Both the position numbers and the translations under genes were made by a program. The notes below the pieces were generated by a model. That model had not been told where the DNA came from. It saw only the letters and a program-made list of their open reading frames with translations, and searched no databases. From NCBI GenBank assembly GCA_016788485.1, contig JAEUSV010000048.1:13956-77955 (forward strand): a DNA stretch of 64,000 bases. The letters are read 5' to 3'. Source of the DNA: Flavobacteriales bacterium. GTDB lineage: Bacteria; Bacteroidota; Bacteroidia; Flavobacteriales_F; PHOS-HE28. Of this stretch, positions 17,821 to 59,097 are shown in pieces. Every line of letters starts with the position of its first letter. The first letter of the stretch is position 1.

Positions 17821-18327
17821 TTAGGGCGTGCTAACTTTGAATTTACTTCCGGATTTTTGCAACTTGTACGAAATTGGTGTGCATAAATCAGATATAATTA
17901 TTGTTTGGATACAACTGGCGTCCATTTTACATTGCAATACTGAGTGAGGTCTTGAGCTAAGGGATTTACCGTATACTGAATTTTCACTTGGGATACTCAA
18001 TGAAGCTTCGATGGGAATATCTCCTTGTAGCGTGGTATAAACTGATAGTGTGCCAATTTCTGTATGGTAGGAAACGATACTATCTTTTTGAAGCGTTAAC
18101 CAAGGACCAAAACGCTTACCGTTGAGAAGCACGCCTACCATGATCGGGCCCCGAATTGAATCTGTTGTGAAGACAACACAGGTACAATGTTCTTTAGTGT
18201 TATTTGACACGTAGAACCCTTCAGATGTGTATGAAACGGAATTCAACTGGCATGTATCAATCTGTGCCAATGAATTTCCTGCTTCACAGAATATGACTGT
18301 GTAAAGGATGAAACGGAGTAAGTTCAT
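17821..18327 (-). CDS. candidate immunity protein for the RHS toxin (Cys-rich, signal peptide, very low GC)
   Basis: 168-aa ORF 3 nt downstream of the RHS stop. N-terminal signal-like MNLLRFILYTVIFCEAGNSLAQ, with six further Cys in the mature part. GC is roughly 40% by eye against 65-70% in the bulk genome. Its position is typical of polymorphic-toxin immunity genes. Confidence 0.7.
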   Translation of the reverse strand: MNLLRFILYTVIFCEAGNSLAQIDTCQLNSVSYTSEGFYVSNNTKEHCTCVVFTTDSIRGPIMVGVLLNGKRFGPWLTLQKDSIVSYHTEIGTLSVYTTLQGDIPIEASLSIPSENSVYGKSLSSRPHSVLQCKMDASCIQTIIISDLCTPISYKLQKSGSKFKVSTP

Positions 18328-21300: not shown

Positions 21301-24300
21301 ACGCTTCAACGCCGGTTGGCCGCCGGCCAGGTTGTCGTTCACGAAGTTGCCGTTGGCATCGTAGGCATAGCTGGTGGCGTGCTCCAGCCCGCCGTCGGTC
21401 CATTGGCCGCCCACCAGGTCGCGCTGGCGGTCGGCCTTCAGGCGGTTGAGCACATCGTAGCGGTAGCGCATCACACGCCGGTCCTCGGCGTTGAAGGGCG
21501 GTTGGGGCGGCTGGTTGGCCTCGGCGGTCTGCGCCTGCCAGCTCCACGCGCCGATGTTACCGTTGTAGAGGTCGTCGCGCACGCGGCCGTTGCCGCTGGT
21601 GTTGTGGAAGGGGCTGTTCAGGTCGTTGAAGTCGCCGTTGAAGTAGGAGAGCATCATGCCGAAGGCGTCGCGGCCGGTGGTGCTGTTGGTGCCTGCGAAG
21701 CTGTCGGCGCCGGGGTCGAGGTTGGTGAGCTCGGGCGCGTTGATGGCCTTGAGCCAGCCCTGGATGGTGTAGGTATGGTCGATGCCCTGCACCTTGTCCT
21801 CGCCGAGCAGGGTGCGGCGCAGCGGTCCGTGGGCGTAGTAGCTGTAGGTGGCGTCGCGGTCCCACAGCACGCCGTCGGTGCTGGTCTGCGCGGTAAGGAT
21901 GCGCCCGTCGGCATCGTAGGTGTAGCGCTGGAAGTATTGGTCGGTGAAGCCTTCGTTGTAGCGCAGCTGGCGCACGCGGCCGCTCACCAGGTCGTAGTCG
22001 TAGGCCACATGGGCGCGCCCCAGGCCGGGCAGCTGGTGCACGAGCCAGGCCACGTTGCCGTGCACATCGTAGCTGTAGGCGGTGAGCACCTGGTCGTGGG
22101 TGGTGAAGAGGTCGCCGTCCTCATCGCTCACCGTCCAGCTCACGCGGTTCACCAGGTTGCGCTGGGGTTGGCCGTTGGGGAAGGTGAGGCCGGCCAGCGG
22201 GGCGGTGTAGGTGGTGCGGGTAACGAACTTGCCTGCGGCGGGGAAGCTGTTGTCGTTGGCGAGGGCGGGGTCGGTGAGCACGGTGGCGGCGGCCAGGTTG
22301 CTCTCGCCCACCTCGATCACGCGGCCCAGCTCGTCATACCGGGTGTAGCTGTAGGTGGGGGTGGGGTAGGCGGCCTGCTTGGCGTTCTGGCTGAAGCGCA
22401 GGCGGCCCAGGCGGTCGTAGGCCATGGTGGTGGCGCCGCCATCGGGGGTGCGCTGCCACACCAACTGGCCCAGGCTGTTGTAGCGGTACTGGGTGCGTTC
22501 GTCGTAGGCCGGCACGTTGTTGGGCCAGTTGGCCTCGGGCACACCGGCATGGTCGAGCTGCTTGTCCTCGTCGTTGGGCGGCACGGTGCTCATGAGGTTG
22601 CCGGCGCGGTCGTAGTAGTACAGGGTGTAGTGGTGCTTGCCGCTGGCGAAGCTCACGTGCAGGTTGTCCTGGATGTTGGCGGGCACGGCGCACCGGCTCA
22701 TGTAGTCCTGCGCGAACTGGTCCACCAGCTGTTCCACCTGCATGGTGATGGCCGCGAGCAGCTCCTGGCGCAGGGCCTGGGCGTGGATGGCCTCGCAGGA
22801 GAGCGCGGTGCTGGGGTCGGGCGGGGTGGCGGGCGCGACCTCAGGCACCCAATGCAGGCACACCTCGGTGGGTATGCACAGGTTGTTCACCTGGAATTGC
22901 TGGGGATCCTGGTTGTTGCATGGCACGCCGTCCACCACGGGATGCGCGGCGCCGATCAGGCTTGCGGTGATCAAGGCTTCGGGAGGCCCGATGCTGGATA
23001 CCGGCGAGCCTTGTGCCTGCACGGTGTTGCAGGCGCTTACGCAGGTGTTCTGCAGGGCGAGCACGAGGCAGTCGATCGCGGCTTCGTCGTTGTCGTTCGC
23101 ACCGGCCGAACTTTCCGGCTGCAGGCCGTACTCGGCGATCACGGCCTGGCGGAAGGCGGCCTCCTGTTGCGTGCTGAAGCACGCCGTGGTGCATGCGGCC
23201 ACGATCTGGTCCGCCTGGTCCTGGATCTGGGTGGGTGTGAGCGGTGCTGCGTTCAGGTCGATCTCGGCCGCAAGGCAGCCCATGAGCAGGTCGTAGCCGG
23301 TGGTGAGCACGCCCGGGTTGGCGGGGTCCATGATGATCGGCTCGGCGAAGGCCACGCCAGGCGTGAGCGGCGTGCCGTTGAGGCTCGGTGGGTCGAGCAT
23401 CAGTGCACCCTGCGTTGAGGTGAACGGCTGCAAGCTGGCCAGGAACAGGTGGCAGTCGCTGCCGACCACGTCATCGCTCAGCCCTTGGTACGCGTTGGTG
23501 AGGTAGCCTTGGGTGCTGGAGAATTGGAGCGGGGTATGGGTGCTTCCGGCTGTACTGTAAAGCACGTCCGTTCTGCGGCCCGCGCAGTCGAGGAACAGGT
23601 CCACGAGGTATTGCTGCGGAAGCGGTGTCGCCGGGTTATAGCCGGGCAAGGTGGCGGCCCCGGGGACCGACCCGGGTGTAATGGGGTTGGGCGAGTTCTG
23701 TGCGGCCAGAAAGGCCGTGTACCCCTGCACCGCCCCGATCCAGCAGCCCCAGATCTTTTCGCAGTCGTACGGGGCGCCACCGGTGGCCGGTATGTTCAGC
23801 ATGTTGTACATCAGTTGCGAGAAGCTCGCGTACGTGTAGACCGCTGTGGGGTCGCCACTGATGGGGTAGCTGAAATGGTCGCTCCAGAACGTGGCGGGCA
23901 GGTTGTTGAGGTCGGTGGGCAGATCGGGGTCGATGGCCTCGTTGTACGCGCTGATGAAATAGCGGAGCAGGGTGTCGGCATCGATCACGCACGGGGGGCA
24001 TTCGAGCTTGGGCAGGTTGATCGACGCGCATTCCAGGGCGATCTGCACCTGGTCGTTGCCCAGGTCGGTCACCAGGTTGCTGGCGTAGAAGGCGTCGAGG
24101 TCCGCATTGTCCAGTGCCGTCAGCAACGGGGCCACGGTGGTCAACATGGCATCGGTGTACGCTTCGCGCAGGGTCTGCTGGTGGGCCTGCAGCGCGGGCC
24201 AGCCGGGGAAGGCGGGGTCATTATCGTCCAGCACGTTGTTCACGCGGATGCGGCGGCCCACCTTGTAGGAGCCGGCGTTCAGGGTAACGGTGTGGTTGAG

Positions 24301-26345: not shown

Positions 26346-27071
26346 TCAGGGTTTCTTCGCCTGCGGTTTCTCCGAAATGCGATGGTCGCGCAACCGGTGG
26401 TCAGCGAGCGCCGGTCGCAAGCGGCCTCCGGCCAGCACATGGTCCACCGCCGGACCGGCCAGGCGCGGGTCCACCTCGCCAGGCCGGTAGCTGAGGAAAC
26501 GGATGCGGTAGCGGTGCAGCATGTGGCCGGGCCGGTAGGTGGTCTCCATGTCGGTGATCAGGTCCTTGCGCGTGTCCACCACGTACCGCACGCTCGCGAT
26601 AGGGCCCTTGTCGGCGGGTGCCTGCAGTTCGATCACCAGATCGCTGCCTTCCTTGCCGTTCGTGCGGCAGGTGGCCACCGTGCTCGTCAGGATCAACGCC
26701 TCGTTGAACTGCTCCCAGTCGGTGGGGGCCTTGGCCGTGCCAACCTGCGGATGGATCATCACCTGCTTCTCGGTATGCAGCACCACCACCCGGTCCTGCG
26801 GGTCGATGTAACTGCTGAAGTGCTCGTTCTCCACGATCGAGCGGCCCGGTGCGACGGAGACGGTGGTGTGCAGCACCACCTCGGGGGCCTGCCCCGCGGC
26901 CTGGCTGTGGATCTCCAGCTCGGCGCGCAGGTGCCCCTTGCCGGCCACGTTCACGCGGGCCTGCATGTCCTTCGCCAGGCGCAACAGTTCCTGCCTGCAA
27001 TCGTCCTGGGCCCGCAGCGGTGCCCACACATGCAGCAGAAGCCAACCGATGAAGAGGGTGCGGATGCTCAT
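26346..27071 (-). CDS. secreted hypothetical protein between the two giant genes
   Basis: Start ATG at 27071 overlaps the upstream stop (ATGA). Signal peptide MSIRTLFIGWLLLHVWAPLRAQ. 241 aa, beta-rich. The longer 384-aa ORF version is an Arg/Pro-rich extension overlapping the upstream gene. Confidence 0.65.
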   Translation of the reverse strand: MSIRTLFIGWLLLHVWAPLRAQDDCRQELLRLAKDMQARVNVAGKGHLRAELEIHSQAAGQAPEVVLHTTVSVAPGRSIVENEHFSSYIDPQDRVVVLHTEKQVMIHPQVGTAKAPTDWEQFNEALILTSTVATCRTNGKEGSDLVIELQAPADKGPIASVRYVVDTRKDLITDMETTYRPGHMLHRYRIRFLSYRPGEVDPRLAGPAVDHVLAGGRLRPALADHRLRDHRISEKPQAKKP

Positions 27072-30000
27072 GGCCAGATGCGGTTCTTTTCCAAGGGCGT
27101 GTTGTACTGCGTTTCCTGCACCGTGCGCAGGCCGCGTTCGGTCTCCACCAGCTTGCGCACCAGCTTGCCCTCGTCGTTGTATTGGTAGTACAGGCCGAAG
27201 TGCTGGTCGTCGAAACTGGTCAGCAGGCGGTAGGTGGCCGGGTCGTAGACATAGGTGGTCATCTGCGCATCGATCGGCTGTATCCGCACATCGTCCACGT
27301 GGAGGCTTCCGCTCACCGAGCCGCGCTGGCAGCTGAGGTCGATGGCGTAGGTGGCCGAGCCGCTGGGCAGCACCAACTGGGCTTCGCACAGCACCCATTC
27401 GCCCACGCGGGCCACCTGTTGCATGGGCACACCGGTGGGGTCGCTGTTCAGGTGGGCCTTCGGGCCTACCGGGTCGAGCGGACCGGTGACGTCCATGCAC
27501 CGGAACCAGGCCTTCACCAGCATGGTGCGCGGGGCGCTCAAGGGAGCCTCCAGCGCGCGGGTCCCGCTCTTGTACACAAAGCCCTGCGGCACGGCCAGCC
27601 GGAAGCTCTTGCGGCCTGCGTGCCCCACGTTATCGATCTGGCCGGCATTGTTCCAGGAGAACTGCACCTTGTCCTCGAGCGTCCCGGTATAGTCGTTCTC
27701 GAAGCTCTCGAAGAGCGCCAGGGGCGAAGCGCAGTTCTGGGCCACCAGGTAGGGCAGCTGGTGGTGGTACCCGAACTTCGAGCAGCTCCGCACGTGCAGC
27801 GCGTTCTCTTCCTCCACCGGCTGCCCGTTCGGTGAATAGGCCACCACATGGTTGGTGAGCACCCATTGGGCCGCGTTGTTGTCGGGGTCGTCGTGGTCGA
27901 AGAAGGGCATGTCGTACCAACCTGTGTTGCGGTTGAGCCCGCCGTTGTAGGTGGGGGAGAGGAAGGCGTAGGTCGAATCGGGGCGCCACTGCCCGCGCAT
28001 GCCGGTCTCGAACGCGTTCAGCGTATTGGGTACGTTGTACAGGCCGCGGTCGTAGGTCCACAGGTCGGAATACACGGTGGCGTTGCAGCTCACGACCTTG
28101 GTCACGGTGCGGTCGGGCGTGGCCGGGCACAAGCGGGGGCAGGTCACCGGTATGAGGTGGCAGGGGCTCGCCCCGGGCCTGTAGTTCACCACGCCCGTGG
28201 CATTGTCCAATTCGAAGGTCCCATAGCTGCCGGTGGCCGAGGAGGTGCTGAGCACGAAGGGATCATCGCACGAGGGGCCGTCAGGCTGGGTCATCTGCGC
28301 GGAGAGGATGGGCACCAGCGTGTTGCCGTTGGCCGCGATGGTGAACCGCACGCTCGGGGTCGCATTGCACGAGCCGCCGTTCCCCATGAACAGCAGGCCG
28401 CTTGGTACCAGCACACTGTAGGGGTTGTTCGGTGTGCCCGCGATCAGATCGGGCAGCACCTGTGCGGCGAACACCGCGTTCAGGTTGTCCACGAACTGCT
28501 GGCGCAAGCTCCAGTCGGCCGTCATGGTCATCGCACCATCGTCGTAGGTGGTGTACTCGGCGGCGGGCACCGCCAGCTGGTTGCTGCAGCCGCTGCGGAT
28601 CACCTCGAGCCTGGTGATGGGCGTGCCCGCGATCAGGTCGGTCGAACCCGTGGAGCGCAGCAGGTGCAGCGTGGGGCCAGCGGGGTTGCTGCGTTCCAGG
28701 TGATAGAGCCGCACCTGGCCTCCCTGGGTCAGGGCCAGCTGATCGCCCTGGCACAGCGCGTTCAACAGGTCGCAGATGCCATTGCCCGCAGGCGGCGGGG
28801 GCGCGGCCAGCGATACCTGGGCCACACCCGCGCTTGAGGCGGTGCAGGTCATGAGCACGGATTGTGGCGTTACGACCTTGCGCTCGCCCTTGGCGGTCTG
28901 GCCCAGGTCGGGATAGACCAGGTGGGCCGGCAGGGTGTGCTTGGTGTAGATGCCATGGGTGGCCGTGGCAAGGCTGCTGGTGTTGGCCGGGTCGGGCAGG
29001 AAGCCGTCGTGCGTGCGGATCACCGCCGGTTCACCGGTGGCCGGGTCGAAGGCGACCGGTTCGCTCATGTGGTGTATGCCGTCCACGTAGGTGCGTGTCC
29101 GTTTCAGCACGGCCGGGTAGTTGATCACCTTGGTGGTGGCGTGGGAGCGGATGGTGGTGTTGATGTAGGTCACCGTCAATGCGGCTGAGACCGATGGTGG
29201 CAGGGGTACGCCTGTGCCGATGTCCACCTCCAGCCCGCCGTTCTCCATTTCATCGCGCGCCACGCGGCCCTCCATGGTGATGTCCATCTCCTGGCCCAAG
29301 GGCCGCGGTGCCGTGTTGCCGAAGCGGTCGATCAGCGTGGGCAGCTCATCCCCGGCCGCGTAGTACTCGTACTCGGTGCGCGCACTGAAGGGGGCATTGC
29401 CGGCGCCTCCGGTCAACAGGGCCTGCGGCTGGCCGCTGTAGGTGGTCTCGCTCTTGGGCTGCCCGTGCATGTTGTTGAACTTGAGCACGAAGCCCTGCGA
29501 TACGGCGCGCTTGTCGATGATGGTGGTCACCCAGGGGGTGATCACCGGCAGATAGACCGGCCCGTCCGTTTCAATGCTCGTCATGTCGAACTCCACCGGA
29601 TGCTCGCGGGCGGTGAAGAACTCCTTGGCCACGAAACCGGCGCCGTTGGGCAGGCAGCTGCCGCTCAGGTGCGAGCCTCCGATGTTGGAGATGATCACCT
29701 TGGAATAGCCGACGCTGGGGCCGGGGTAGATGCTCATGCCGATGGGGCCTTCGCTCTGTTCGCGATCGCGACCGGCGATCACTTTGCTGGCCCAGCTCTG
29801 TTGGAAGCGCTCCAGCGGGGCCACCAACGGGTTCTCGCAGTTGATCGATGCCGGTTCATTGGTGGCCACGCCGCTGCTGATGACCGTGCCATCCTCGGCC
29901 GTGGTCTCGTAGCGGTACTCCGTGCCATACACGGCCGGGTATCCTTCGGCCACGCCCAGGGGATCCACCATCAACAGGCGCTTCACGCGCAGCCCGCCAC

Positions 30001-33000
30001 CGTACTTCCGCTCCGGCACGGGCAACCGCAGGTAGCTGTGCGCGGGGATCACCGTAGTGCACGCAGCGGGAGTGCCCACTGTGTTCAGCAGGAAACCCAC
30101 GGCATCGGCGACCACGTCCTCCACATTGTTGCTACTGGTGCTGGGGTCGGTCACGCCGTGCTCCACCAGCTCAGTGCCGCCGAACTTGAACTGTTCGGCC
30201 AGGGGGGGCACGGGTGGCTGGCCACCGACCGCGCTGTACCACGAGGCCGATGGAAGCGAACGACCACGCTTCTGCGCCTTGAACAGGTCCTTGCACACAT
30301 CCTTCGGCAATCCGTGATCATCGCTGTTGAACCGGATCATGAGCAGGTAGTGCGAGGGGTCGTTCGGGTCCGCCACCACTTCCACGTGCTCCACTTTCGC
30401 ATACCCTTCGATGAACTCCATGTTGCGGCCGTGCAGCAGGGGGTCGGTCGCTGCGGCATCGTCGCGCAACACGTGCAGCATGCGGAAGAACATGCGCGCG
30501 TTGGTGCCGATGTAGGTGCTGGCGATGAGCTGGGCCATCCGCGCCAGCTTCGGGTCGGTCGCGCTGGTCGCGGTGATCCCGAGCGAGGCCGGGTCCATGA
30601 GCAGTTCATCGTATGGCTCCGCCGTCGATCCATTGTACCAGTCCTTCATCACCACCATGGCATGGGCGTGCTTGTCCTGCACGAAGGCATAGTCATCCGG
30701 TTCGTATTGCACGTGGATCTCGCCGCCCGAGGGGAGGATGATCCGTTTCAACTGCCACGCGGCCGGGTCGAACGCCGCGGCGTTCTGGTCCATCAGCGCC
30801 TGATCCACCCACGGCCGCATCTGGCGGGCACGGTCCACCGCATCCGGGCGGTAGTTGCCCCAGGGGTCGGGCATGTAGGCATTGCCATAGCCCGGGTTCT
30901 GGGTCGTGTTGGCGTAGAACGAGGGCAGGACCTGGTCGTAGGGCGCGGGATAGGTCGTGGGGTAGTTGTACACGAACTCGTAAGGGGCGATGCGCGCAGG
31001 CACCGTGCCGTTGTACTCGGTCCATACCCGTTTCAAGGTCAGCTTGCCCTGGCCGGCCTGGCTGTTGGGCGGCCCACCTCCGGGTCCGTTCCAGGCCGAA
31101 TAGTCGTAGTCGAAATGGACGGTCTTGATGGGCCTGGGGTTGGGATTGGGGACCGTGGTACCGGGAAGCGGTCCGAGCTCGGCGCGCGAGTAGAGCGTGA
31201 TCTTCTTCAGGTAGCGTTGCGTTCCACTGCCTGCCGGTCCGGTGAGCTGCTGTGGCGCGTTCGGCGCCGAGAGCGCATCCTTCCGTAGCTCTGCGGGGTT
31301 GGTCGGGTCGTTCAGCTCGAACACGGCCACATGGCTCTTGGTCTCGATGATGGTGAGGTAATAGAGCTCTTTCTCCCCCTCCGCGAACGAGATGCGGTCG
31401 TCGTGCACTTCGCTCAGCTGGCCAATGGCATAGTCGTACCCGCGGTAAGGCATGCGCCACTTATAGGAGTCGGCCTTTCGCCCGTAGCGAAAGGCCGTGT
31501 AGCCCCCCAGGTCGTCCAGTGTAGGCCCGTCCCCGCTCAGGTCCAGGTAGTCGGCATCCTGGATGGAGGTCAGGAGGTAGGTGGTCGCATAGTGGTCGTT
31601 CGCATCGCGCCCCGCTTTGAAGGCCCTCGTGGTTGCGTCCGGATCGCCATTGCACCCGGCCTTGGCCACATTCTCAATGACCGGTGTCACTCCCCCGTCG
31701 GTCTCAATGGAGAAGCTGTGCGCGTGTTCATTCATGGCATACACCGGCAGCCCATAGTTGTAGCGCTGCCCTTGGCCGTTGAGCACGGAGAGCTCACCGA
31801 CCAGGTCGTTCGAGTTGGGTGGGGTGGAAGGGGAGCTTAATGGTAGGGTGGTGTTTGGCAGTGCCGGTGATGAAAGGATGCTGTTATCGATCAACGCTCC
31901 AAGGTTCCCTTTCTCATAACTGCGGTAATGATGCCCCCCCGGTGTGGAAACGTTCATGTCGCCCACGGTGTTGAACCCGATGTGACTGGAGCGCCCGGGG
32001 CGTTCGCCGTTGTTGGCGTAGGCGCCTGCGAGGTAGGTGGAGTATGGTCCGGACAAGGCGCCGTCGGCGTGTTCCGGCCCATCATCGGTGGTGTACCGCA
32101 CCCAACCACCCGGGTCGTTGGCCATGCGGAAGAAGAAGGGCTCATCCTCGGGTTTTCCGATCACATTGGAGGTTGACCAGGTGTCAACGCTCATTTCCTG
32201 TTTGCCCAGTTGGAATTGTGCACCTGCACCGAGCCATGAACCTGCACCGACCTCGATCCCGGCCCTGTAGAGCGTTGTTGAACTGCTGGTATGCTGCGGA
32301 CCGAAAGGGATGACCCTTCGCTGGTATAGCCGCGCAGAACCACTGATCCCTTCGCCGCTGAAGGAGAATTGGTCGGGGTCGCTGATGGGCACGTTCAAGT
32401 ACTTGTCCCGCCGCTCGTAACTGGAAAGGTTCTCGCAGTGATAATCCTGTGCACCGGCGCACGTGGCCGTGGAGTACATGTATCCGGTATGGGGCAGGGT
32501 CTCTTCCGCCTGTGTCCTTTGGATACTGTACATGCCTTGTATCCCGGTCGTCAGTCCCACAGGCAGGGGTGCCGGCGTTGCCATTCCGGAAACGCTCACC
32601 GTCCAAGCCTGGCTTCCGTCCATCTTGGGTGCGGCGAGGCTGTAGCCGTTGGGGTTAAGTCCTTTGGACAGGTAGGAGTTCGCGATGGCGCCCGTGTTGA
32701 GCCGCATCTTCTTCAGCTCCAGACCTTTGATCTTCTTCCGATCCGTAGCATAGATCTCTCCTCGATTGAAGGTCTTATCCCGTCCTTTCTTTTTGATTTC
32801 CTTCATGTGTTTCTCCGCATCCGCTTTATTCTGCCTTGGTAGCATGGCGGGATTGACGTCCAACGAGAAGCTGCCGGAGCCATCGGACACTTGGTAGCCA
32901 ATGGATATCACCCCTTGGGCCAGGTGCATTCCTGCCCCGATCGTGCTTCCGAAACCGGTGTAGTTGTTGTACCGCGCGGTGCCGTGCGTGCTGAGCTGAA

Positions 33001-33469
33001 CGGGTTGGCTGAACGCTTCGGGTTCGATCTGTCCAGATAAGGAGACCGTGTGCTGGGGGATGGTCTGATTGTACAGCGTTACGTTGCTGTTCTTCCAATC
33101 ATCGGGCACGCCCCTGGTCTGGCGGCTGATGGAGCCGGGGTTCAGGGTCCACCCATAACCCACCCAGCTGGCCTCCTCTTCAGCGCTTGCACCAGCATGG
33201 TAGCTGAGGGAAAGCGCGTACCCGCCGCCATTGGGCCCGGGTATCTGCAGCACGGGCAGGTTGTAGGTGAAGTCGCCCGTGAACTCGTTCACCATGTTGG
33301 TGGTGACCACCGGCTCGAAGCTGGTGAACTCGGGCTGGGCAGGCCCGGAGGTGAGCGCATAGGCCGCCGTGGGGTACACCACATCAGCAAGCAGGCTCAG
33401 GAGCGTGAAGGATGCGACGATCCGAACGGTCCGGCCGTGCCGGTAAGGGCGATGGTTCCGCGTGCTCAT
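27068..33469 (-). CDS. giant secreted SpvB/TcB-like protein (2133 aa)
   Basis: Signal-like N-terminus (RIVASFTLLSLLADVVYPTAAYA). Residues ~45-125 ..FTSFEP..FTGDFTYNLPVLQIPGPNGGGYALSLSYHAGAS..WVGYGWTLNPGSISRQTRGVPDD fit the SpvB/TcaC N-terminal signature (P..PG..G..P.LSL.Y.S..G.GW.L....I.R.T..G.P). Near the C-terminus is a jelly-roll-like segment, then YD-like repeats (YVYDPATYRLLTSFDDQHFGLYYQYNDEGKLVRK). Confidence 0.8.
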   Translation of the reverse strand: MSTRNHRPYRHGRTVRIVASFTLLSLLADVVYPTAAYALTSGPAQPEFTSFEPVVTTNMVNEFTGDFTYNLPVLQIPGPNGGGYALSLSYHAGASAEEEASWVGYGWTLNPGSISRQTRGVPDDWKNSNVTLYNQTIPQHTVSLSGQIEPEAFSQPVQLSTHGTARYNNYTGFGSTIGAGMHLAQGVISIGYQVSDGSGSFSLDVNPAMLPRQNKADAEKHMKEIKKKGRDKTFNRGEIYATDRKKIKGLELKKMRLNTGAIANSYLSKGLNPNGYSLAAPKMDGSQAWTVSVSGMATPAPLPVGLTTGIQGMYSIQRTQAEETLPHTGYMYSTATCAGAQDYHCENLSSYERRDKYLNVPISDPDQFSFSGEGISGSARLYQRRVIPFGPQHTSSSTTLYRAGIEVGAGSWLGAGAQFQLGKQEMSVDTWSTSNVIGKPEDEPFFFRMANDPGGWVRYTTDDGPEHADGALSGPYSTYLAGAYANNGERPGRSSHIGFNTVGDMNVSTPGGHHYRSYEKGNLGALIDNSILSSPALPNTTLPLSSPSTPPNSNDLVGELSVLNGQGQRYNYGLPVYAMNEHAHSFSIETDGGVTPVIENVAKAGCNGDPDATTRAFKAGRDANDHYATTYLLTSIQDADYLDLSGDGPTLDDLGGYTAFRYGRKADSYKWRMPYRGYDYAIGQLSEVHDDRISFAEGEKELYYLTIIETKSHVAVFELNDPTNPAELRKDALSAPNAPQQLTGPAGSGTQRYLKKITLYSRAELGPLPGTTVPNPNPRPIKTVHFDYDYSAWNGPGGGPPNSQAGQGKLTLKRVWTEYNGTVPARIAPYEFVYNYPTTYPAPYDQVLPSFYANTTQNPGYGNAYMPDPWGNYRPDAVDRARQMRPWVDQALMDQNAAAFDPAAWQLKRIILPSGGEIHVQYEPDDYAFVQDKHAHAMVVMKDWYNGSTAEPYDELLMDPASLGITATSATDPKLARMAQLIASTYIGTNARMFFRMLHVLRDDAAATDPLLHGRNMEFIEGYAKVEHVEVVADPNDPSHYLLMIRFNSDDHGLPKDVCKDLFKAQKRGRSLPSASWYSAVGGQPPVPPLAEQFKFGGTELVEHGVTDPSTSSNNVEDVVADAVGFLLNTVGTPAACTTVIPAHSYLRLPVPERKYGGGLRVKRLLMVDPLGVAEGYPAVYGTEYRYETTAEDGTVISSGVATNEPASINCENPLVAPLERFQQSWASKVIAGRDREQSEGPIGMSIYPGPSVGYSKVIISNIGGSHLSGSCLPNGAGFVAKEFFTAREHPVEFDMTSIETDGPVYLPVITPWVTTIIDKRAVSQGFVLKFNNMHGQPKSETTYSGQPQALLTGGAGNAPFSARTEYEYYAAGDELPTLIDRFGNTAPRPLGQEMDITMEGRVARDEMENGGLEVDIGTGVPLPPSVSAALTVTYINTTIRSHATTKVINYPAVLKRTRTYVDGIHHMSEPVAFDPATGEPAVIRTHDGFLPDPANTSSLATATHGIYTKHTLPAHLVYPDLGQTAKGERKVVTPQSVLMTCTASSAGVAQVSLAAPPPPAGNGICDLLNALCQGDQLALTQGGQVRLYHLERSNPAGPTLHLLRSTGSTDLIAGTPITRLEVIRSGCSNQLAVPAAEYTTYDDGAMTMTADWSLRQQFVDNLNAVFAAQVLPDLIAGTPNNPYSVLVPSGLLFMGNGGSCNATPSVRFTIAANGNTLVPILSAQMTQPDGPSCDDPFVLSTSSATGSYGTFELDNATGVVNYRPGASPCHLIPVTCPRLCPATPDRTVTKVVSCNATVYSDLWTYDRGLYNVPNTLNAFETGMRGQWRPDSTYAFLSPTYNGGLNRNTGWYDMPFFDHDDPDNNAAQWVLTNHVVAYSPNGQPVEEENALHVRSCSKFGYHHQLPYLVAQNCASPLALFESFENDYTGTLEDKVQFSWNNAGQIDNVGHAGRKSFRLAVPQGFVYKSGTRALEAPLSAPRTMLVKAWFRCMDVTGPLDPVGPKAHLNSDPTGVPMQQVARVGEWVLCEAQLVLPSGSATYAIDLSCQRGSVSGSLHVDDVRIQPIDAQMTTYVYDPATYRLLTSFDDQHFGLYYQYNDEGKLVRKLVETERGLRTVQETQYNTPLEKNRIWP

Positions 33470-52921: not shown

Positions 52922-53699
52922 GCTTGCGGGGATGGTACGCCTTCAGGATGAGCTCGCTGAGGAGCGCATAGGCGCGGCGAAGATCGCCTTCCTCCTCCAA
53001 CCGCTCCAAGTGCCGTTTGATCGTGTCAAGGTCGCCGCGACGCGCGGGACCGGTGAGGGCCTGTTCCGGGCCCACCTCGGCGACCTTGGCGCTCATGGCC
53101 TTCCATAGGGGGGTGAGGAGCTCGGGCGAAAGGCCTTCCTGCTCGAGCAGACGCCCCGCCTCGCGCAGCAGGAACACGGGGAAGTTGGAGGCGAGCACGG
53201 CGGCCAGGTGCACGGTGCGGCGCTTCTCCAGCGGCATCTCCACCACCTTGCCGCTGATGCTGCGGGCCACATCGAGGAGCACGGTACGGGCCTGCTCATC
53301 GTTCGCGTCAACCACCAGGGGCACACGGCTCAGGTCGGCGGGCTTGCCGGGGCTCAGGCTCTTGATGGGCCACAGCACCCCGCGGTGGGGCGCGCGGCCC
53401 AGGATGGCGTGGCCCTGCGCACCGCTGCAATGGGCCACCACGTGCCCGCCCTTGGGCAGCTGCCGGGCCACGGTGCGCACCGCGTCGTCGCTCACGGCCA
53501 GCAGCAGCAGGTCGGCCCCGGGCACGCGCGGCAGCAGGTAGGGCATGCACCCGAGCTCGGCCGCCAACGCGTCGACCTTGCCCTGGTCGCGGCCGCACAA
53601 CCCCTTGAGCTCCACACCCGCGCGCAACAAGGCATGGCCCAGGTGGTAGGCCATCCGGCCGGTGCCGATCAACGCGACGGAGGGCGCCTTGCGCTTCAT
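52902..53699 (-). CDS. Rossmann-fold NAD(P)-binding protein (DUF2520-type / F420-dependent oxidoreductase-like)
   Basis: Start ATG at 53699 (MKRKAPSVALIGTGRMAYHLGHALLRAG is GxGxxG). It overlaps the ccmF stop by 4 nt and kdsC by 20 nt. Confidence 0.7.
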   Translation of the reverse strand: MKRKAPSVALIGTGRMAYHLGHALLRAGVELKGLCGRDQGKVDALAAELGCMPYLLPRVPGADLLLLAVSDDAVRTVARQLPKGGHVVAHCSGAQGHAILGRAPHRGVLWPIKSLSPGKPADLSRVPLVVDANDEQARTVLLDVARSISGKVVEMPLEKRRTVHLAAVLASNFPVFLLREAGRLLEQEGLSPELLTPLWKAMSAKVAEVGPEQALTGPARRGDLDTIKRHLERLEEEGDLRRAYALLSELILKAYHPRKRGITDL

Positions 53700-56600
53700 G
53701 CGGTGGCGGGCCGGCGCCTGATGCGCTGCCGCACGGCCATGAAGGTACCCAGGGCCATGAGCACGCAGCCCACCCACAGGATGTTGATCCCGGGGAAGAC
53801 GATGGCCTGCAGGATCACGAACTCACGCTCGCTCACGTCCAGCACCACGGTGTCGCCTTTCACGCCCTTGAGGTCGAGGCGCATCTTCAGCTCCGGCAGC
53901 TCGAAGCCCTTGCTGGCCACCGGTTCGCCGAAGCGGGTGATGAGCACCGGACGCGCCTCGAAGCAGCGTGTGCTGTCGTACACGTCGCACACGTTCACCC
54001 GCAGGCTGTAGGCGGTGAACTCCGGACCCAGCACGGCACGCGTCACGCTGTCGCGCACGGTGCGCAGGCTGTCCATGCGGATGATGCTGGTGGGCGTGAC
54101 GATGGACTCGCCGAGCTTCTTCTCGAAGGTGCGCGGCGGCATGTAGTCGCTGGTGTCGCCACCATCGAGCTTGGCGTAGCGGATGTGGGTGTAGAGGTCG
54201 CGCGTGAGCCAGTGGCGCGTGCTGGGCTCGGCCACGTTGCCGAAGCGCGGGTTCAACTGCACGAAGGGCTCCAGCGCGAACTCCCTGGCGCCCGGGCGGT
54301 AGGAACCCCAGCGCTCGGCATGCCACAGGGCCCGGCGCGGGTAGTTCTCCAACTCCTCCCAAAGGCCGGCCCCCAGGTCCTTGAGGAAGTCGATGGACGC
54401 GGTGTGCGCCGCCTTCGCACGGAACAGGCTGTTGCGCACGCGCACGGTGTCGCCGGGGACATACGCGCTGGGCACCGCGGCCAGGTAGTCCATGTCGAAG
54501 TGCAGGTTCACACCTTCCTGGCGGCGGCCGGTGAAGGTGACGAAGTGCGGGCCCATGCGCATGGTGTCGCCCTTGTACAACAGCATGTCCGTGCCGTTGT
54601 CGAAGCCCTCGTTCAACAGGCGCAGGTCGGGGCCCTGCAGGTTGCGGCTGATCTCCTGCTGGCGGCTCGTGCTGATGAGCGCGCCCAGCAGCACCAGGGC
54701 GAAGCCCACGTGCGCCACGCTCGGCCCCCAGCCGTCCCACTTGCCCTTCAGCACCTGCACGAGGTAGCCGGCGTTGGCCACGGCGGCGAAGGCGGTGGCG
54801 AAGTACAGGGCGATCAGGTTGAGGTCGGCGGCCTTGTAGTCGAGCAGCACCACACCGAGCACCGTGAGGGCCAGGGCGATGAGCGCGTGCAGGCCGATGC
54901 GCTTGCCGAAGCGCTTCATGTCGGTGTCCTTGTAGCTGAGGAACTGTCCGATGGCCACCAGCAGCGCCACGATGAAGGCGAAGGGGATCTGCCACTTGTT
55001 GTAGTGGGCCTTGGCGTCGCCGGGGGGCGCGAGCTTGGCCTGGCTCAGGTCCTTGAACAGCTCGATGCCGGTCTTGTCCGCCAGCCAGCCGAACACGTGC
55101 CCGAAGGGTTCGAGCAGCAGGTTGAACACGGGCACGCTGGTGCTAAAGGTGATCTGTGCGGCGCTCAGGACAAGCACCAACGCACCGATGAAGAGCCAGA
55201 ACTCACGGCTCCACACGTTCTCCTCCCTAGCCGTGATCTCTACCCGACGATTTCTACTTCGTCCGTCTTCAGTGGTATTCGGGGCGATAGGCTTCAATGA
55301 GCCAAGACCGATGGCAACTAGCTGGCGCCCGTTACCTCCTTTAGCCACGATTGCGTCGCAAACGACATTAGCTCTTTGCGCGCTGAGCTTCTCATTGATC
55401 TTCGCGTCACCAACATTGTCCGTATGTCCAACCACCTCAACGAGCAGGTCAGGATTGGACTTCATGAACAGTATCACCTGCTCCAGCTTGGCGACGCCTT
55501 CGGACCGTAAATCACTGCTACCAATATCATAGTTGATCTTTACAGGTCTAAGGTGGAATGGAGAGGTGCGGTAGCCCACCACCAGCATCACCACGCTCGT
55601 GATCGCGAAGAGCACGATGGCCGCCACCTGCACCTGCAGGGCCGCACCGAGCACCAGCATCATGCCGCTGATCAGCAGGTAGAAGCGGCGCTGCTCCCAT
55701 TGCTCGTTGAGCATGGCCACGCTGAGCATGATGAAGCTGAGCAGGAAGAGCAGCAGGCCGGGCAGCATGCCCTCGCCGGTGAAGCTGTGCACGCTGGTGT
55801 CGCCGAGCACGCCGCTGCGGGTGAGGAAGGTGCTGTAGAGCACCAGGATGAAGGTGAGCAGGGTGAGGAAGAGGGTGGTGAAGAGGCTCGTGCCCTTGCG
55901 CTTGTTCACCAGCATCAGGTGGCCGGCGCCGACCAGGGTGAGCCAGGGCACGAGGCTCGCGTTCTCCACGGGGTCCCAGGCCCAGAATCCGCCGAAGCTG
56001 AGCGCCTCGTAGGCCCAGGCACCGCCCATGAGGATGCCTACGCCCAGCACCATCACGCCGAAGAAGGTCCACGGCAGCGCGGGGCCGATCCATGCACTGT
56101 ACTGCCGCTTCCACAGGCCGGCGATCGCGTAGGCGAAGGGCACCAGGGTGGCGGCGAAGCCCAGGAAGAGGGTGGGCGGGTGGATGGTCATCCAGTAGTT
56201 CTGCAGCAGCGGGTTGAGGCCGCGGCCATCGGCGAACTGCGGGATCTTGGTGAGGTAGTCGGGCAGCTGCGTCCAAGGCAGGCCCAGGTTCTCGGGCAGC
56301 TCGCGGATCAGCAGGAAGGGGCTGCTGCCCACGCGCACGTCGCCGATCCACACGCCCAGCAGCATGGTGGCCAGGAAGGCCTGCACCAGCGCGAACACGG
56401 TCATCACCGGGGCCTCCCACTCGCCCGCACGGCGCAGCAGGATGTTGCCGAGCACCACGTGCCAGAAGGTCCACAACAGGAAGGAGCCTTCCTGGCCCTC
56501 CCAGAAGCAGCTGAGGATGTAGCGCAGCGGCATGGCCGTGTTGCTGTGCTTCCACACGTAGTCGAACTCGAACCAGTGCTTCAGCAGCATCACGAAGAGC

Positions 56601-56845
56601 AGCCCGATGATGCCGAACACGGCGGCGGTGTGCAGCCGGAAGCCGATCCGGCCCAGCCCGTTCAGGCCCTGTTCCCCGCGGAAGGCGCCGGTGAAGTAGG
56701 CGAGCAGCGAAAGGAAGGCCCCGCCGAAGCTGAGGCTGGTGAGCACATGGCCGAGCGTACCGGCCCAGGCGTGCTCGCCCACGTATGCGATGGTGTCGTT
56801 CAAACCCCGGTGACCTTGTTCTCCTCGTTGTACTTGCTCGGGCAC
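53696..56845 (-). CDS. ccmF: cytochrome c heme lyase / assembly protein CcmF-like (1049 aa) carrying an inserted OmpA-like domain
   Basis: Trp-rich heme-handling motif GGFWAWDPVENASLVPWL, many TM helices and a long C-terminal periplasmic extension. The ATG at 56845 overlaps ccmE by 46 nt. An in-frame TTG at 56803 would give a 4-nt TTGA overlap instead. Confidence 0.85.
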   Translation of the reverse strand: MPEQVQRGEQGHRGLNDTIAYVGEHAWAGTLGHVLTSLSFGGAFLSLLAYFTGAFRGEQGLNGLGRIGFRLHTAAVFGIIGLLFVMLLKHWFEFDYVWKHSNTAMPLRYILSCFWEGQEGSFLLWTFWHVVLGNILLRRAGEWEAPVMTVFALVQAFLATMLLGVWIGDVRVGSSPFLLIRELPENLGLPWTQLPDYLTKIPQFADGRGLNPLLQNYWMTIHPPTLFLGFAATLVPFAYAIAGLWKRQYSAWIGPALPWTFFGVMVLGVGILMGGAWAYEALSFGGFWAWDPVENASLVPWLTLVGAGHLMLVNKRKGTSLFTTLFLTLLTFILVLYSTFLTRSGVLGDTSVHSFTGEGMLPGLLLFLLSFIMLSVAMLNEQWEQRRFYLLISGMMLVLGAALQVQVAAIVLFAITSVVMLVVGYRTSPFHLRPVKINYDIGSSDLRSEGVAKLEQVILFMKSNPDLLVEVVGHTDNVGDAKINEKLSAQRANVVCDAIVAKGGNGRQLVAIGLGSLKPIAPNTTEDGRSRNRRVEITAREENVWSREFWLFIGALVLVLSAAQITFSTSVPVFNLLLEPFGHVFGWLADKTGIELFKDLSQAKLAPPGDAKAHYNKWQIPFAFIVALLVAIGQFLSYKDTDMKRFGKRIGLHALIALALTVLGVVLLDYKAADLNLIALYFATAFAAVANAGYLVQVLKGKWDGWGPSVAHVGFALVLLGALISTSRQQEISRNLQGPDLRLLNEGFDNGTDMLLYKGDTMRMGPHFVTFTGRRQEGVNLHFDMDYLAAVPSAYVPGDTVRVRNSLFRAKAAHTASIDFLKDLGAGLWEELENYPRRALWHAERWGSYRPGAREFALEPFVQLNPRFGNVAEPSTRHWLTRDLYTHIRYAKLDGGDTSDYMPPRTFEKKLGESIVTPTSIIRMDSLRTVRDSVTRAVLGPEFTAYSLRVNVCDVYDSTRCFEARPVLITRFGEPVASKGFELPELKMRLDLKGVKGDTVVLDVSEREFVILQAIVFPGINILWVGCVLMALGTFMAVRQRIRRRPATA
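55225..55565 (-). other. in-frame OmpA_C-like (peptidoglycan-binding) domain insertion within ccmF, lower GC
   Basis: Translation ..PVKINYDIGSSDLRSEGVAKLEQVILFMKSNPDLLVEVVGHTDNVGDAKINEKLSAQRANVVCDAIVAKGGNGRQLVAIGLGSLKPIAPNTTEDGRSRNRRVEITA.. contains the OmpA-like signature GHTDxxGxxxxNxxLSxxRA..NRRVEI. The DNA here is ~50-55% GC by eye against ~68-70% in the flanking ccmF sequence. Confidence 0.8.
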
Positions 56846-57192
56846 TTCATGAGCATGTCGCGCGCATGGAAGTTGCCGTTCTCATCGGCCTCACCGATCA
56901 GCACCAGGCGCTCGCTGCGCTCCAGGTCCTGCGGCTTCGCCTTGTGCAGCATCACGGTGCAGGTGCGGCCCTTGAGGTCGACCATGCTGAACTGCGTGAG
57001 GCTGGCGTTCTGCGAGGGTTCGTACACGATGGCCTGGCTGCGGTCGAGCACGCCCACCACGTGGTACTCCTTGCCGGGGTGCGCCATGGCCTGCTCCAGG
57101 TCGGCGTAGGTGCTGCTGTCGTACAACGAGCCCACCAGCGCGGCGATGGCCACGGCGATGATGAGAATGGCGATGATGTGGGAGCGTTTCAT
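56800..57192 (-). CDS. ccmE: cytochrome c maturation heme chaperone CcmE (CxxxY variant)
   Basis: N-terminal TM anchor (IIAILIIAVAIAALV), an OB-fold-like body (..HVVGVLDRSQ..RLVLIGEADENGNFHARDMLMK) and a C-terminal CPSKY in place of the canonical HxxxY heme-binding motif. Confidence 0.85.
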   Translation of the reverse strand: MKRSHIIAILIIAVAIAALVGSLYDSSTYADLEQAMAHPGKEYHVVGVLDRSQAIVYEPSQNASLTQFSMVDLKGRTCTVMLHKAKPQDLERSERLVLIGEADENGNFHARDMLMKCPSKYNEENKVTGV

Positions 57193-57199
57193 GACGGTG

Positions 57200-57424
57200 T
57201 CACTTTTTCGTGCGCGCCTCCATCCGCGCGATGCGGCGGTCCATGCGGAAGAGCCACAGGCCGATGCCGGCGATGATCACGGTCACCACGGCGATCACGG
57301 TGTTGATCTTGCCGCTGTGGTACAGCTGCTCCTCCAGCCAGCCGGGTGCACTGCCTTGCGCGAAGGTGGCGCCGGTCATGAGCATGCCGAGGAGGAACGC
57401 GGGTGCCCTACGGATGGTTCGCAT
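57200..57424 (-). CDS. ccmD: CcmD-like small membrane protein (Bacteroidota-type alternate CcmD)
   Basis: 74 aa with a single TM helix (INTVIAVVTVIIAGIGLWLF) followed by a basic tail RMDRRIARMEARTKK. It lies between ccmC and ccmE and overlaps ccmC by 17 nt. Confidence 0.6.
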   Translation of the reverse strand: MRTIRRAPAFLLGMLMTGATFAQGSAPGWLEEQLYHSGKINTVIAVVTVIIAGIGLWLFRMDRRIARMEARTKK

Positions 57425-58424
57425 CGTCCAGGTGGTGTTGCAGGCGCGCCAGGCGGAGGCGCAGGGTGTACATCCACACGCCGATGCCGATCCAGCCGAG
57501 CACGGCGGGATAGAACACCACGCGCAGGGTGCTGTCGAGGTCGTAGTTGCTGAAGGCGGGGTTGCCGCCGTTGCCGGGGTGCAGGCTGTCCACCGCGTTG
57601 AGGCGCGGCAGGATCCAGATGAAGAGGATGAGCAGCACGAAGGCGAACACGTTGTAGATCGCGGCCAGGCGGGCGCGCTTGCCGGGCTCGGGCACGCTAC
57701 CGCGCAGCACCAGGTAGGCGAGGTAGATGAGGGCGCTCACGGCCGCGCCGTTCAGCTTCACATCGTTGGTCCACCACGCGCCCCAGGTGGCGCGGGCCCA
57801 GATGCTGCCGGTGATGAGGCCGAGCGTGCAGAACACCAGGCCGGTGCGCGCGCTGAGGTCGGCGGCCATGTCGTGCCGCAGGTCGTTGCTGCCCAAGGCC
57901 CGGATGCTCGCCACCACCGAGATGCCGAAGAGCACCATCATGGTGAACCACATGGGCACGTGGAAGTTGAGGTTGCGGATGGTCTCGTACAGGATGTTCC
58001 GGTTCGGGAAGGCGAAGTCGAATAGGTCAATGAACTTTGGTCCAGGGCCACAACCTTGCGGGGCCACGATCCCTTTGCCCAGCCCCTCGGTGAAGAGCGC
58101 CCCGTTCATGTGCACCCGACCCGCGTATACATCCGTCAGGTTGGCCTTCAGCCCGGCCGGAACCTCGAACCTGGCGCGCAGGAAATGGTCGTTCACCACC
58201 TCCACGCCGGAGGGGCATACGTACTGCCCATCGTTCATCAGGAAGACCCGCTCACCGTCCTTGAAGGCGGTGTTGTAGCCGGTGATCTCCAGCGTAACGG
58301 GACCCGGGGCGATGCGGTCGGGGCTCACGTGCACCAGCGCCGGCTTCAGGGGCACTTTCAGGGCCGTGATGGACGCGGCCAGCACCAGCACCACCGCGAG
58401 GATCTTCCACCACCAATGCTTCAT
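57408..58424 (-). CDS. ccmC: heme exporter protein CcmC with N-terminal extra domain
   Basis: WWD-type motif ..WARATWGAWWTNDVKLNGA.. and polytopic topology. 338 aa, so ~100-135 aa longer at the N-terminus than classical CcmC. Confidence 0.85.
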   Translation of the reverse strand: MKHWWWKILAVVLVLAASITALKVPLKPALVHVSPDRIAPGPVTLEITGYNTAFKDGERVFLMNDGQYVCPSGVEVVNDHFLRARFEVPAGLKANLTDVYAGRVHMNGALFTEGLGKGIVAPQGCGPGPKFIDLFDFAFPNRNILYETIRNLNFHVPMWFTMMVLFGISVVASIRALGSNDLRHDMAADLSARTGLVFCTLGLITGSIWARATWGAWWTNDVKLNGAAVSALIYLAYLVLRGSVPEPGKRARLAAIYNVFAFVLLILFIWILPRLNAVDSLHPGNGGNPAFSNYDLDSTLRVVFYPAVLGWIGIGVWMYTLRLRLARLQHHLDDANHP

Positions 58425-58428
58425 CGCT

Positions 58429-59097
58429 CTAGTCGCGCCAAAGGTACGGGAACAGCATCCAGGCCAGCAGCACGGTGATGAGGTCCAGCAGGGCCAATCC
58501 CAGGAAGTACTTGCCGTTCACGCTGAAGGCCACGCCGTCGAGGGCGAGCTTGCTGGCGCGCATCACGGCGATGAGCATGGGCAGCACGATGGGGAAGCCG
58601 AGGATGGCCATGAGCCCGAGCCCGTTGCCGGCCCGTGCCGCGATGGCGCTGATCAAGGTGAGCACCGTGGCGAAGCCGATGCCGCCGAGCACCACCGCGC
58701 CCAGGAACTGCGGCAGGTCAGCTTGTTCCATGGCCTCGCTGCCCACGAAGAGGGCGAAGAAGAGCAGGCTCAGCAGGCTCAGCACCGTCATGGTGGCGGC
58801 GTTGTACAGCGTGCGGGCCAGCACCACGCTCCGCGGGTCGGCCAGGGTGTAGAGGTAGAGCTGCCGGCCGGTGTCCTCGCGCTGGAAGCTGCGGGCCAGG
58901 GCGTTGAAGGCGGCGAAGAGCAGGATGATCCAGAACAGCGCGTTCCAGGTGGCGGTGCCCAGCCCGCCCTTCACGGCCAGGAAGCACACGTACACGGCGC
59001 TTACCACGTACAGCAGCATGCCGCCCCAGGCGTGCTTCTGGCGCAGGTCCAGCAGCACTTCCATGCGCAGCAGGGCGGCGATCTCGCGGGGCTTCAT
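58429..59097 (-). CDS. ccmB: heme exporter membrane protein CcmB
   Basis: 222-aa six-TM-like protein (MKPREIAALLRMEVLLDLRQKHAWGGMLLYVV..) immediately upstream of ccmC (4-nt gap). Size and position match CcmB. Confidence 0.75.
   Translation of the reverse strand: MKPREIAALLRMEVLLDLRQKHAWGGMLLYVVSAVYVCFLAVKGGLGTATWNALFWIILLFAAFNALARSFQREDTGRQLYLYTLADPRSVVLARTLYNAATMTVLSLLSLLFFALFVGSEAMEQADLPQFLGAVVLGGIGFATVLTLISAIAARAGNGLGLMAILGFPIVLPMLIAVMRASKLALDGVAFSVNGKYFLGLALLDLITVLLAWMLFPYLWRD

Follow-up and report, generated by a model that had tools for sequence, protein, structure and literature searches.

How does a domain known for binding peptidoglycan come to lie in the middle of a heme lyase? This question is raised by a ccmF-like gene in a 64,000-nt stretch of contig JAEUSV010000048.1 from an uncultured Flavobacteriales bacterium (assembly GCA_016788485.1, positions 13,956 to 77,955 of the forward strand), here referred to as the window and numbered from its first nucleotide. 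The open reading frame (ORF) encodes a protein of cytochrome c maturation, CcmF, and contains in-frame a complete OmpA-like domain between two transmembrane (TM) helices. This CcmF-OmpA architecture is new; it is built of known parts and was seen once, with no other example in any of our searches. We see about an even chance that it represents a real, very young, and tolerated in-frame capture of an OmpA gene fragment that left the catalytic core of CcmF intact. The features that define the insertion are as follows, with residues given in ORF numbering throughout:

53696..56845, minus strand: ccmF-like heme lyase ORF, uninterrupted, 1049 aa counted from the first GTG (56845)
55226..55564, minus strand: tract of foreign composition holding the in-frame insertion, codons 428-540, with low GC content at third codon positions (GC3)
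55247..55531, minus strand: core of the OmpA-like domain (PF00691 match), aa 439-533
55418..55420, minus strand: Asp476, equivalent of the diaminopimelic acid (DAP)-binding Asp (Asp271 in Acinetobacter baumannii OmpA [AbOmpA]), in an invariant column of a 37-sequence alignment
55373..55375, minus strand: Arg491, equivalent of the DAP-binding Arg (AbOmpA Arg286), in an invariant column of the same alignment

A preliminary description of this locus, made from the sequence alone, had placed an OmpA-like segment of ~113 aa with the full OmpA_C-like signature inside the CcmF ORF at 55225-55565. These coordinates are essentially exact, the low-GC3 tract extending from 55226 to 55564, and the signature is complete: PF00691 matches with 59.3 bits compared to a cut-off of 27.2 and is covered from position 2 to 98 of its 98 model positions, while NCBIfam returns a series of OmpA-type matches at aa 434-543, with the YiaD family as the best. 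The insert modeled alone using AlphaFold2 (AF2) has a predicted local distance difference test (pLDDT) value of 95.5 and the element order b-a-b-a-b-a-b. This model matches the C-terminal domain of Pseudomonas aeruginosa OprF (5U1H) with a TM-score of 0.95 and a root mean square deviation of 0.7 Å and the AbOmpA domain with a DAP pentapeptide (3TD5) with a TM-score of 0.94; sequence matches to entries in the PDB reach an E value of 5e-20. In an alignment with 36 homologues, all invariant and near-invariant residues are kept (GHTD, S..RA, and NRRVE). For these comparisons, CcmF and OmpA sequences were aligned separately; a joint MAFFT alignment scattered the short OmpA proteins over CcmF columns. 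Asp271 and Arg286 of AbOmpA bind the DAP carboxylate of peptidoglycan (PMC12108004), and their equivalents Asp476 and Arg491 have the same spacing of 15 residues as in AbOmpA. The insert begins a few residues before beta-1 and ends three residues past NRRVEI, which is the position of the stop codon in stand-alone homologues. Judged by sequence and fold, the insert is a genuine OmpA-like domain, complete and canonical, with the DAP-binding pair of the family in place.

Is this domain a feature of the CcmF family? In a protein alignment with eight orthologues and a DNA alignment with the two closest relatives, L432-R540 (~109 codons) stands in place of ~3 native residues (HPE), giving a clean gap and a net gain of +318 nt (+106 aa), and the flanks are 89% identical at the nucleotide level to these two relatives. 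The window sequence reads ...VVGYRTSPFH-[LRPVKINYD...NRRVEITAR]-EENVWSREFW..., and the relatives read ...VVGYRTASYK-HPE-EEKLWSREFW.... Among the best 120 of 8000 scored CcmF homologues from a 5.8-billion-cluster collection, PF00691 is borne by the window's own protein only, and the nearest relatives have 929 aa compared to 1035 aa here, counted from the start codon discussed below. The native loop from YRT to REFW comprises 12-13 aa in 14 of the 14 genomic loci found with a YRT...REFW motif, a count that takes in four loci where a looser regular-expression match contained the same loop. The insert is absent from all orthologues examined, and it is, therefore, not an old feature of the family. 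The closest GTDB representative, a wastewater Flavobacteriales metagenome-assembled genome (MAG), has 86% amino-acid identity, and the window's species is not among the representatives.

Using a 196-aa query across both junctions, we obtained matches to OmpA only or to CcmF only, and no other protein bridged either junction; a look-up of the exact chimeric protein returned no record. When GTDB genomes and viral contigs were scanned for exact 24- to 33-mers of the insert, there were zero matches, and we found no second copy of the insert elsewhere in the 64-kb window, based on which we rejected an intragenomic donor. The sole match in a 24-mer scan of JGI metagenome contigs was an exact stretch of 26 nt in contig L003 (positions 682-707) that encodes GHTDNVGDA. 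L003 was rejected as a donor or second copy: the gene is an unrelated one for a 446-aa tandem-OmpA lipoprotein, 37-40% identical, on a contig with 54% GC, and the 26-nt identity appears to be a chance event within a conserved motif.

The preliminary description had also noted that the insert is of lower GC content than its flanks and that the reading frame is uninterrupted, and it had proposed a recent, foreign, in-frame domain insertion. All three points are supported. A single ORF extends across the insert, the GC content of which is 0.512 compared to a whole-window mean of 0.654, and its GC3 is 0.55 compared to 0.937 in the 5' part and 0.947 in the 3' part of the same gene. Several codons present in the insert (AGA three times, GTT five times, AAT six times, GCT three times, and TTA, CTA, ATT, and ATA) occur 0 times among the 936 native codons, and overall its codon usage lies far beyond the native range. 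A biological insertion with this composition would have undergone essentially zero amelioration. This unameliorated composition (GC3 of 0.55 vs 0.94) supports that the insertion is evolutionarily very young.

We noticed two irregularities at the edges of the tract. Codons 428-429 (TCT CCA; 55559-55564, minus strand) are A/T-ending yet encode the native-looking S-P of a conserved xPF[HR] motif, and codons 541-580 (55106-55225, minus strand) are mildly enriched in triplets ending in A or T (6 of 40, P=0.016). Because of these A/T-ending codons, the exact edges of the foreign tract are slightly ambiguous. We also considered that the region could have been acquired by recombination with a ccmF of lower GC content in which the insert was already present, and we rejected this possibility because the excess in the flank is only mild and no such ccmF is present in the databases.

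The host protein is a divergent, long-form CcmF. Pfam identifies Cytochrom_C_asm (PF01578) at aa 119-344 with 86 bits and CcmF_C at aa 613-736 with 36 bits, and the top structural match of the full-length model is Thermus thermophilus CcmF (6ZMQ; TM-score of 0.73 normalised to the target, E value of 9.5e-13). The NCBIfam cut-offs for the CcmF/NrfE subfamilies TIGR00353 and TIGR03145 were not reached (170 bits vs 569 and 174 vs 927, respectively); the Flavobacteriales clade as a whole is a divergent long-form CcmF, and its members are named CcmF or "CcsA" by different sources. In the alignment with eight orthologues, the WWD motif, the periplasmic P-His1 (H222) and P-His2 (H353), and the membrane-embedded TM-His1 (H309) and TM-His2 (H712) are all in invariant columns. 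Because all these catalytic residues are intact, the enzyme probably still works. The true start of ccmF is probably the ATG at 56803 (M15), giving a protein of 1035 aa; this codon forms an ATGA overlap with the stop codon of ccmE, as in relatives, and the database version and the orthologues start there.

On which side of the membrane does the domain lie? The preliminary description had recognized hydrophobic helices on both sides of the insert, and both are present in the full-length AF2 model, in which pLDDT is above 90 across the TM region. The model and the anchors used for counting helices provide the following features:

aa 360-379: TM9 (AF2)
55637..55699, minus strand: TM10 (in-to-out), aa 383-403, aligned with TM10 of T. 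thermophilus CcmF
aa 404-405: helix break (AF2, pLDDT above 90)
55565..55630, minus strand: TM10a (out-to-in), aa 406-427, first arm of an extra hairpin, immediately upstream of the insert
aa 428-540: insert between the hairpin arms (AF2 model)
55139..55225, minus strand: TM10b (in-to-out), aa 541-569, second hairpin arm, directly downstream of the insert
aa 571-592 and 595-602: amphipathic helices (AF2)
aa 611-637: TM11 (AF2)
aa 643-668: TM12 (AF2)
aa 672-699: TM13 (AF2)
aa 707-727: TM14, with H712 near its start (AF2)
aa ~728-1017: beta-rich domain (AF2)
aa ~1020-1048: last TM helix (AF2)
55787..55789, minus strand: P-His2 (H353), periplasmic anchor for helix counting
54710..54712, minus strand: TM-His2 (H712), inner-leaflet start of TM14, second anchor

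6ZMQ aligns to aa 27-411 and 614-727; the stretch between, with the insert, is missing from canonical CcmF, and because the alignment skips it, the insert region is lineage-specific. In CcmF, TM-His1 is in TM7 and TM-His2 in TM14, both in the inner leaflet, while the WWD/P-His site is outside (PMC10663686). Between the periplasmic H353 and the insert there are three TM helices, and between the insert and TM14, which starts on the cytoplasmic side, there are four; either count places the insert loop in the cytoplasm. Across 47 orthologues, the density of lysine plus arginine (K+R) alternates cleanly between short periplasmic loops (0.00-0.12) and cytoplasmic loops (0.18-0.44), and the native tip loop that receives the insert, with a density of 0.20, is within the cytoplasmic class. 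Residues 404-408 include D, E, or K in several orthologues, and for this reason we regard them as a genuine exposed turn. The two hairpin arms are strongly hydrophobic, with summed scale dG values of −1.5 and +0.1, which makes it implausible that they stay outside the membrane. Two other arrangements, a single long helix at aa 389-425 and a TM helix at aa 571-592, were rejected based on the AF2 break at 404-405, the charged turn, and the helix parity; in addition, a hand sum on a central-position hydrophobicity scale gave ~+9 for aa 571-589, which argues against a TM helix there. Based on helix parity, K+R statistics, and the AF2 boundaries, it is likely on computational grounds that the OmpA-like domain would be cytoplasmic and, as such, unable to bind the sacculus. 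Of the combination that the preliminary description had named as counting against its proposal, a cytoplasmic loop with degenerate peptidoglycan-binding residues, the cytoplasmic location is thus supported, while the residues are not degenerate (D476 and R491 are intact).

In the Flavobacteriales CcmF proteins more generally (55139-55630 here; loci L001, L002, and L004-L028), the extra TM helices at aa 406-427 and 541-569 bring the total to ~17 TM helices compared to 15 in 6ZMQ. Their C-terminal periplasmic beta-rich domain is large, and a weak ResB-like match is present at the last TM helix.

Where might the domain have come from? We found no close donor above ~52% identity among 5.8 billion clustered proteins, 1.84 billion representatives, and 185,579 species genomes. 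A protein search with the insert only gave a best identity of 46-48% among size-matched proteins; this search listed only proteins of <200 aa, not including the window's own protein, and appears to be length-biased. Among the 1.84 billion representatives, identity per domain was at most 44%, in a list headed mostly by multi-repeat OmpA proteins; this search would have shown a single-domain relative of ~65% identity or more. Among solved structures, the highest identity was 49% over 85 aa to Mycobacterium tuberculosis ArfA. In a tblastn search of genomes, two Cytophagaceae MAGs had 51-52% identity, other Bacteroidota 46-48%, and Proteobacteria 43-44%. The Cytophagaceae loci are in genomes with 48% GC and have a local GC of ~0.50 and a GC3 of 0.53-0.60, similarly to the insert. 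The examined loci of Bacteroidota encode proteins of 620-700 aa with the domain at the very C-terminus; in Cytophagaceae, it ends 5 residues before the stop codon. A mid-GC Bacteroidota donor is, therefore, plausible from these sequences but unproven, and beyond this weak lean, the donor search suggested in the preliminary description does not allow a lineage to be named. IMG/VR contained no viral relative of the insert.

The short direct repeats that the preliminary description had suggested looking for are not there: we found no direct repeats or target-site duplications at the junctions and no terminal inverted repeats. The sole end-proximal repeat is an imperfect 10-mer (GTAAAGATCA and GTAGAGATCA) within the insert, which we judged to be due to chance. 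Rfam gave zero matches for structured RNA at the gathering threshold, and k-mers of >=15 nt from the junction region were absent elsewhere in the window. A mobile element (insertion sequence, miniature inverted-repeat transposable element, intein, or intron) was rejected based on the lack of junction repeats, the empty Rfam result, and an insert that consists entirely of the OmpA-like domain.

If the insertion is real, these observations would fit the following scenario. A ~330-nt fragment encoding a whole OmpA-like domain would have entered ccmF of one high-GC uncultured Flavobacteriales lineage in-frame, having formed the 3'-terminal coding part of an OmpA-family gene in a mid-GC (~50%) organism, possibly another Bacteroidota. 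It probably entered by illegitimate recombination into a permissive loop, replacing ~3 residues. Selection on cytochrome c maturation would purge out-of-frame or stop-containing variants, while foldable in-frame inserts would stay. The domain would fold in the cytoplasm and hang from the tip of the TM10a/TM10b hairpin, out of reach of the sacculus, most likely as a neutral or mildly deleterious passenger; that it is tolerated may reflect the compactness of a module able to fold by itself and the position of the permissive loop, which is distant from the WWD/P-His active site in the periplasm.

Several observations weigh against this scenario of a young cytoplasmic passenger. The insertion is known from one contig only, with no second sample. 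The boundaries of insert and domain coincide almost exactly, which is unexpectedly tidy for illegitimate recombination, and the absence of a donor above ~52% identity from the databases searched is odd for a transfer without amelioration. Moreover, the cytoplasmic placement is a prediction from a model and from sequence, and the fully intact peptidoglycan-binding residues would fit a functional domain in the periplasm equally well. Some of the same observations would be expected if a chimeric assembly or read, or another non-biological sequence, had been joined into the contig, in which case the gene would exist in no cell. We consider such an artefact possible but rather unlikely. It is in agreement with an architecture that is known from a single contig and a single cluster member, that is absent from the GTDB representative genomes, and of which the JGI metagenome contigs contain no insert copy; with junctions bridged by no other protein; with a near-uniform codon usage in the insert; and with an insert that is precisely one domain and has no close natural relative. 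However, a misassembly would need two chimeric junctions, one leading out of the gene and the other back into it at the same codon, with an insert that is also sense-oriented, in-frame, and stop-free and that deletes only ~9 nt. Shared k-mers of >=15 nt, which are a source of error in de Bruijn graphs, are absent in the window, there is no extended identity at the junctions, and the composition of the insert fits that of real mid-GC Bacteroidota homologues.

The chimera is probably either non-functional or artefactual; that it is real, expressed, and functional, whether as a peptidoglycan-tethered System I heme lyase or as a cytoplasmic sensor of m-DAP-containing wall precursors, is in our view improbable. 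The tethered version, in which the loop is periplasmic and the domain attaches CcmF non-covalently to peptidoglycan similarly to the C-terminal domains of MotB, TssL, and TagL, was what the preliminary description had considered. A complete domain with all DAP-binding and family-invariant residues intact would suit this function, and other proteins of the cytoplasmic membrane, Gloeobacter PsaB among them, are known to carry OmpA-like domains. Nevertheless, the helix parity from two anchors, the positive-inside statistics, and the AF2 boundaries all point to the cytoplasm; two very hydrophobic helices (dG of −1.5 and +0.1) would have to stay out of the membrane, i.e., the extra hairpin would not insert as predicted; and the insert is conserved in no relative. 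We, therefore, regard a wall-tethered heme lyase as very improbable. More speculatively, a real insertion could have acquired a cytoplasmic function, e.g., binding of UDP-MurNAc-peptide precursors that contain m-DAP or of recycled muropeptides, which might couple cytochrome c maturation to cell-wall status. Only the intact DAP-binding pocket together with the predicted cytoplasmic location speaks for this idea. Against it, the insert was seen only once and shows no sign of either selection or amelioration, a freshly captured fragment is unlikely to be functional already, and no OmpA-like domain is known to us to work in the cytoplasm; we judge this idea, too, to be very improbable.

What follows depends on which of these readings applies. 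The present evidence does not reveal new biology of cytochrome c maturation or cell-wall anchoring. A real insertion would give an unusually clean view, in nature, of a domain insertion before amelioration or decay, with a whole folding unit of still foreign appearance in a permissive loop of a membrane enzyme from an essential pathway. Such insertions are assumed to be a driving force behind new protein architectures, yet they are rarely seen so young. The hairpin tip of Flavobacteriales CcmF would then also be a candidate insertion-tolerant site for tags. If the chimera were functional, it would be the first case in which a working OmpA-like domain forms an internal loop of a polytopic membrane enzyme, with the insertion caught at birth. 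If the insertion is artefactual, it usefully illustrates how very plausible a chimeric ORF in a MAG contig can look.

How does the chimera compare with known systems? The insert shares its fold (TM-scores of 0.89-0.95), the GHTD...S..RA...NRRVE motifs, the Asp/Arg DAP-binding pair, and a size of ~105 aa with OmpA-like domains such as those of OprF (5U1H), AbOmpA (3TD5), Pal, Escherichia coli YiaD, and M. tuberculosis ArfA/Rv0899; its identity to any solved structure is at most 49%. These known domains are periplasmic terminal modules of outer-membrane proteins, lipoproteins, or single-anchor proteins, whereas the insert has a TM helix of a polytopic protein on either side and is predicted to be cytoplasmic. 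The MotB/PomB stators and TssL/TagL of the type VI secretion system, families that are among the matches, likewise combine a cytoplasmic-membrane protein with an OmpA-like domain. In these proteins, the domain follows the last TM helix, is exported, is conserved across families, and is functionally required; in contrast, the domain in ccmF is in a predicted cytoplasmic loop and known from one contig only. Thus, compared to a peptidoglycan anchor, the insert is on the predicted cytoplasmic side, is internal (between TM10a and TM10b), and lacks a counterpart in all orthologues examined.

PsaB of Gloeobacter violaceus (7F4V_aB), residues 753-863 of which match the insert with an E value of 2e-12, is similarly a lineage-restricted OmpA-like fusion to a polytopic bioenergetic membrane protein. 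At least two Gloeobacter species have this extension, which is reportedly translated; it is not visible in the structure and has been hypothesised to anchor photosystem I to peptidoglycan (PMC11565984). The PsaB case differs in that the fusion is terminal and on the periplasmic side, in a cell without thylakoids. Finally, canonical CcmF/NrfE (6ZMQ, 15 TM helices) shares with the window's protein the core fold, the WWD motif, two periplasmic and two TM His residues, and the ccmBC(D)E-F context. Compared to 6ZMQ, the CcmF proteins of Flavobacteriales include two additional TM helices, placed between TM10 and TM11, and their C-terminal periplasmic beta-rich domain is larger; the window's CcmF carries the OmpA insert as well.

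The genes upstream of ccmF are as follows:

56800..59097, minus strand: upstream ccm genes, comprising ccmE (56800-57192), ccmC (57408-58424), and ccmB (58429-59097)

The ccmF gene belongs to a ccm operon in which ccmB, ccmC, and ccmE are present in an order identical to that in the two insert-free relatives L001 and L002, and a gap of ccmD size is present between ccmE and ccmC. On the 3' side, ccmF is followed by a DUF2520 gene, an unassigned 174-aa ORF, and a UbiA gene, an order shared by L001 and L002, with Maf further downstream. CcmC (57408-58424, minus strand) has 338 aa, and its Cytochrom_C_asm match begins only at residue 150; the N-terminal extension of ~130 aa has a hydrophobic segment at its start, and the ccmC genes of L001 and L002 are of similar length (336 aa).

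During these analyses, we noticed other stretches of deviating composition in the window. An ORF of 2667 aa with RHS repeats (18331-26334, minus strand) has a GC3 of 0.3-0.55 over its C-terminal ~340 codons compared to 0.86 overall, and it is followed by a 168-aa ORF (17821-18327, minus strand) with a GC3 of 0.38 and no match in Pfam; together, the C-terminus of the RHS ORF and the 168-aa ORF look like a swapped polymorphic-toxin C-terminal domain and its immunity gene. A 1058-aa protein (9765-12941, minus strand) with a DUF7948 domain, a PKD-like domain, and a weak, below-cut-off match to the type IX secretion system domain Por_Secre_tail is encoded by a mosaic ORF, with an in-frame central block (codons ~281-760) of GC3 ~0.5 in a gene with otherwise higher GC3. 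Lastly, the ORF at 27068-33469 (minus strand, 2133 aa) contains a low-GC patch near its 5' end (~32471-33110), in which GC reaches a minimum of 0.53 in 330-nt windows.

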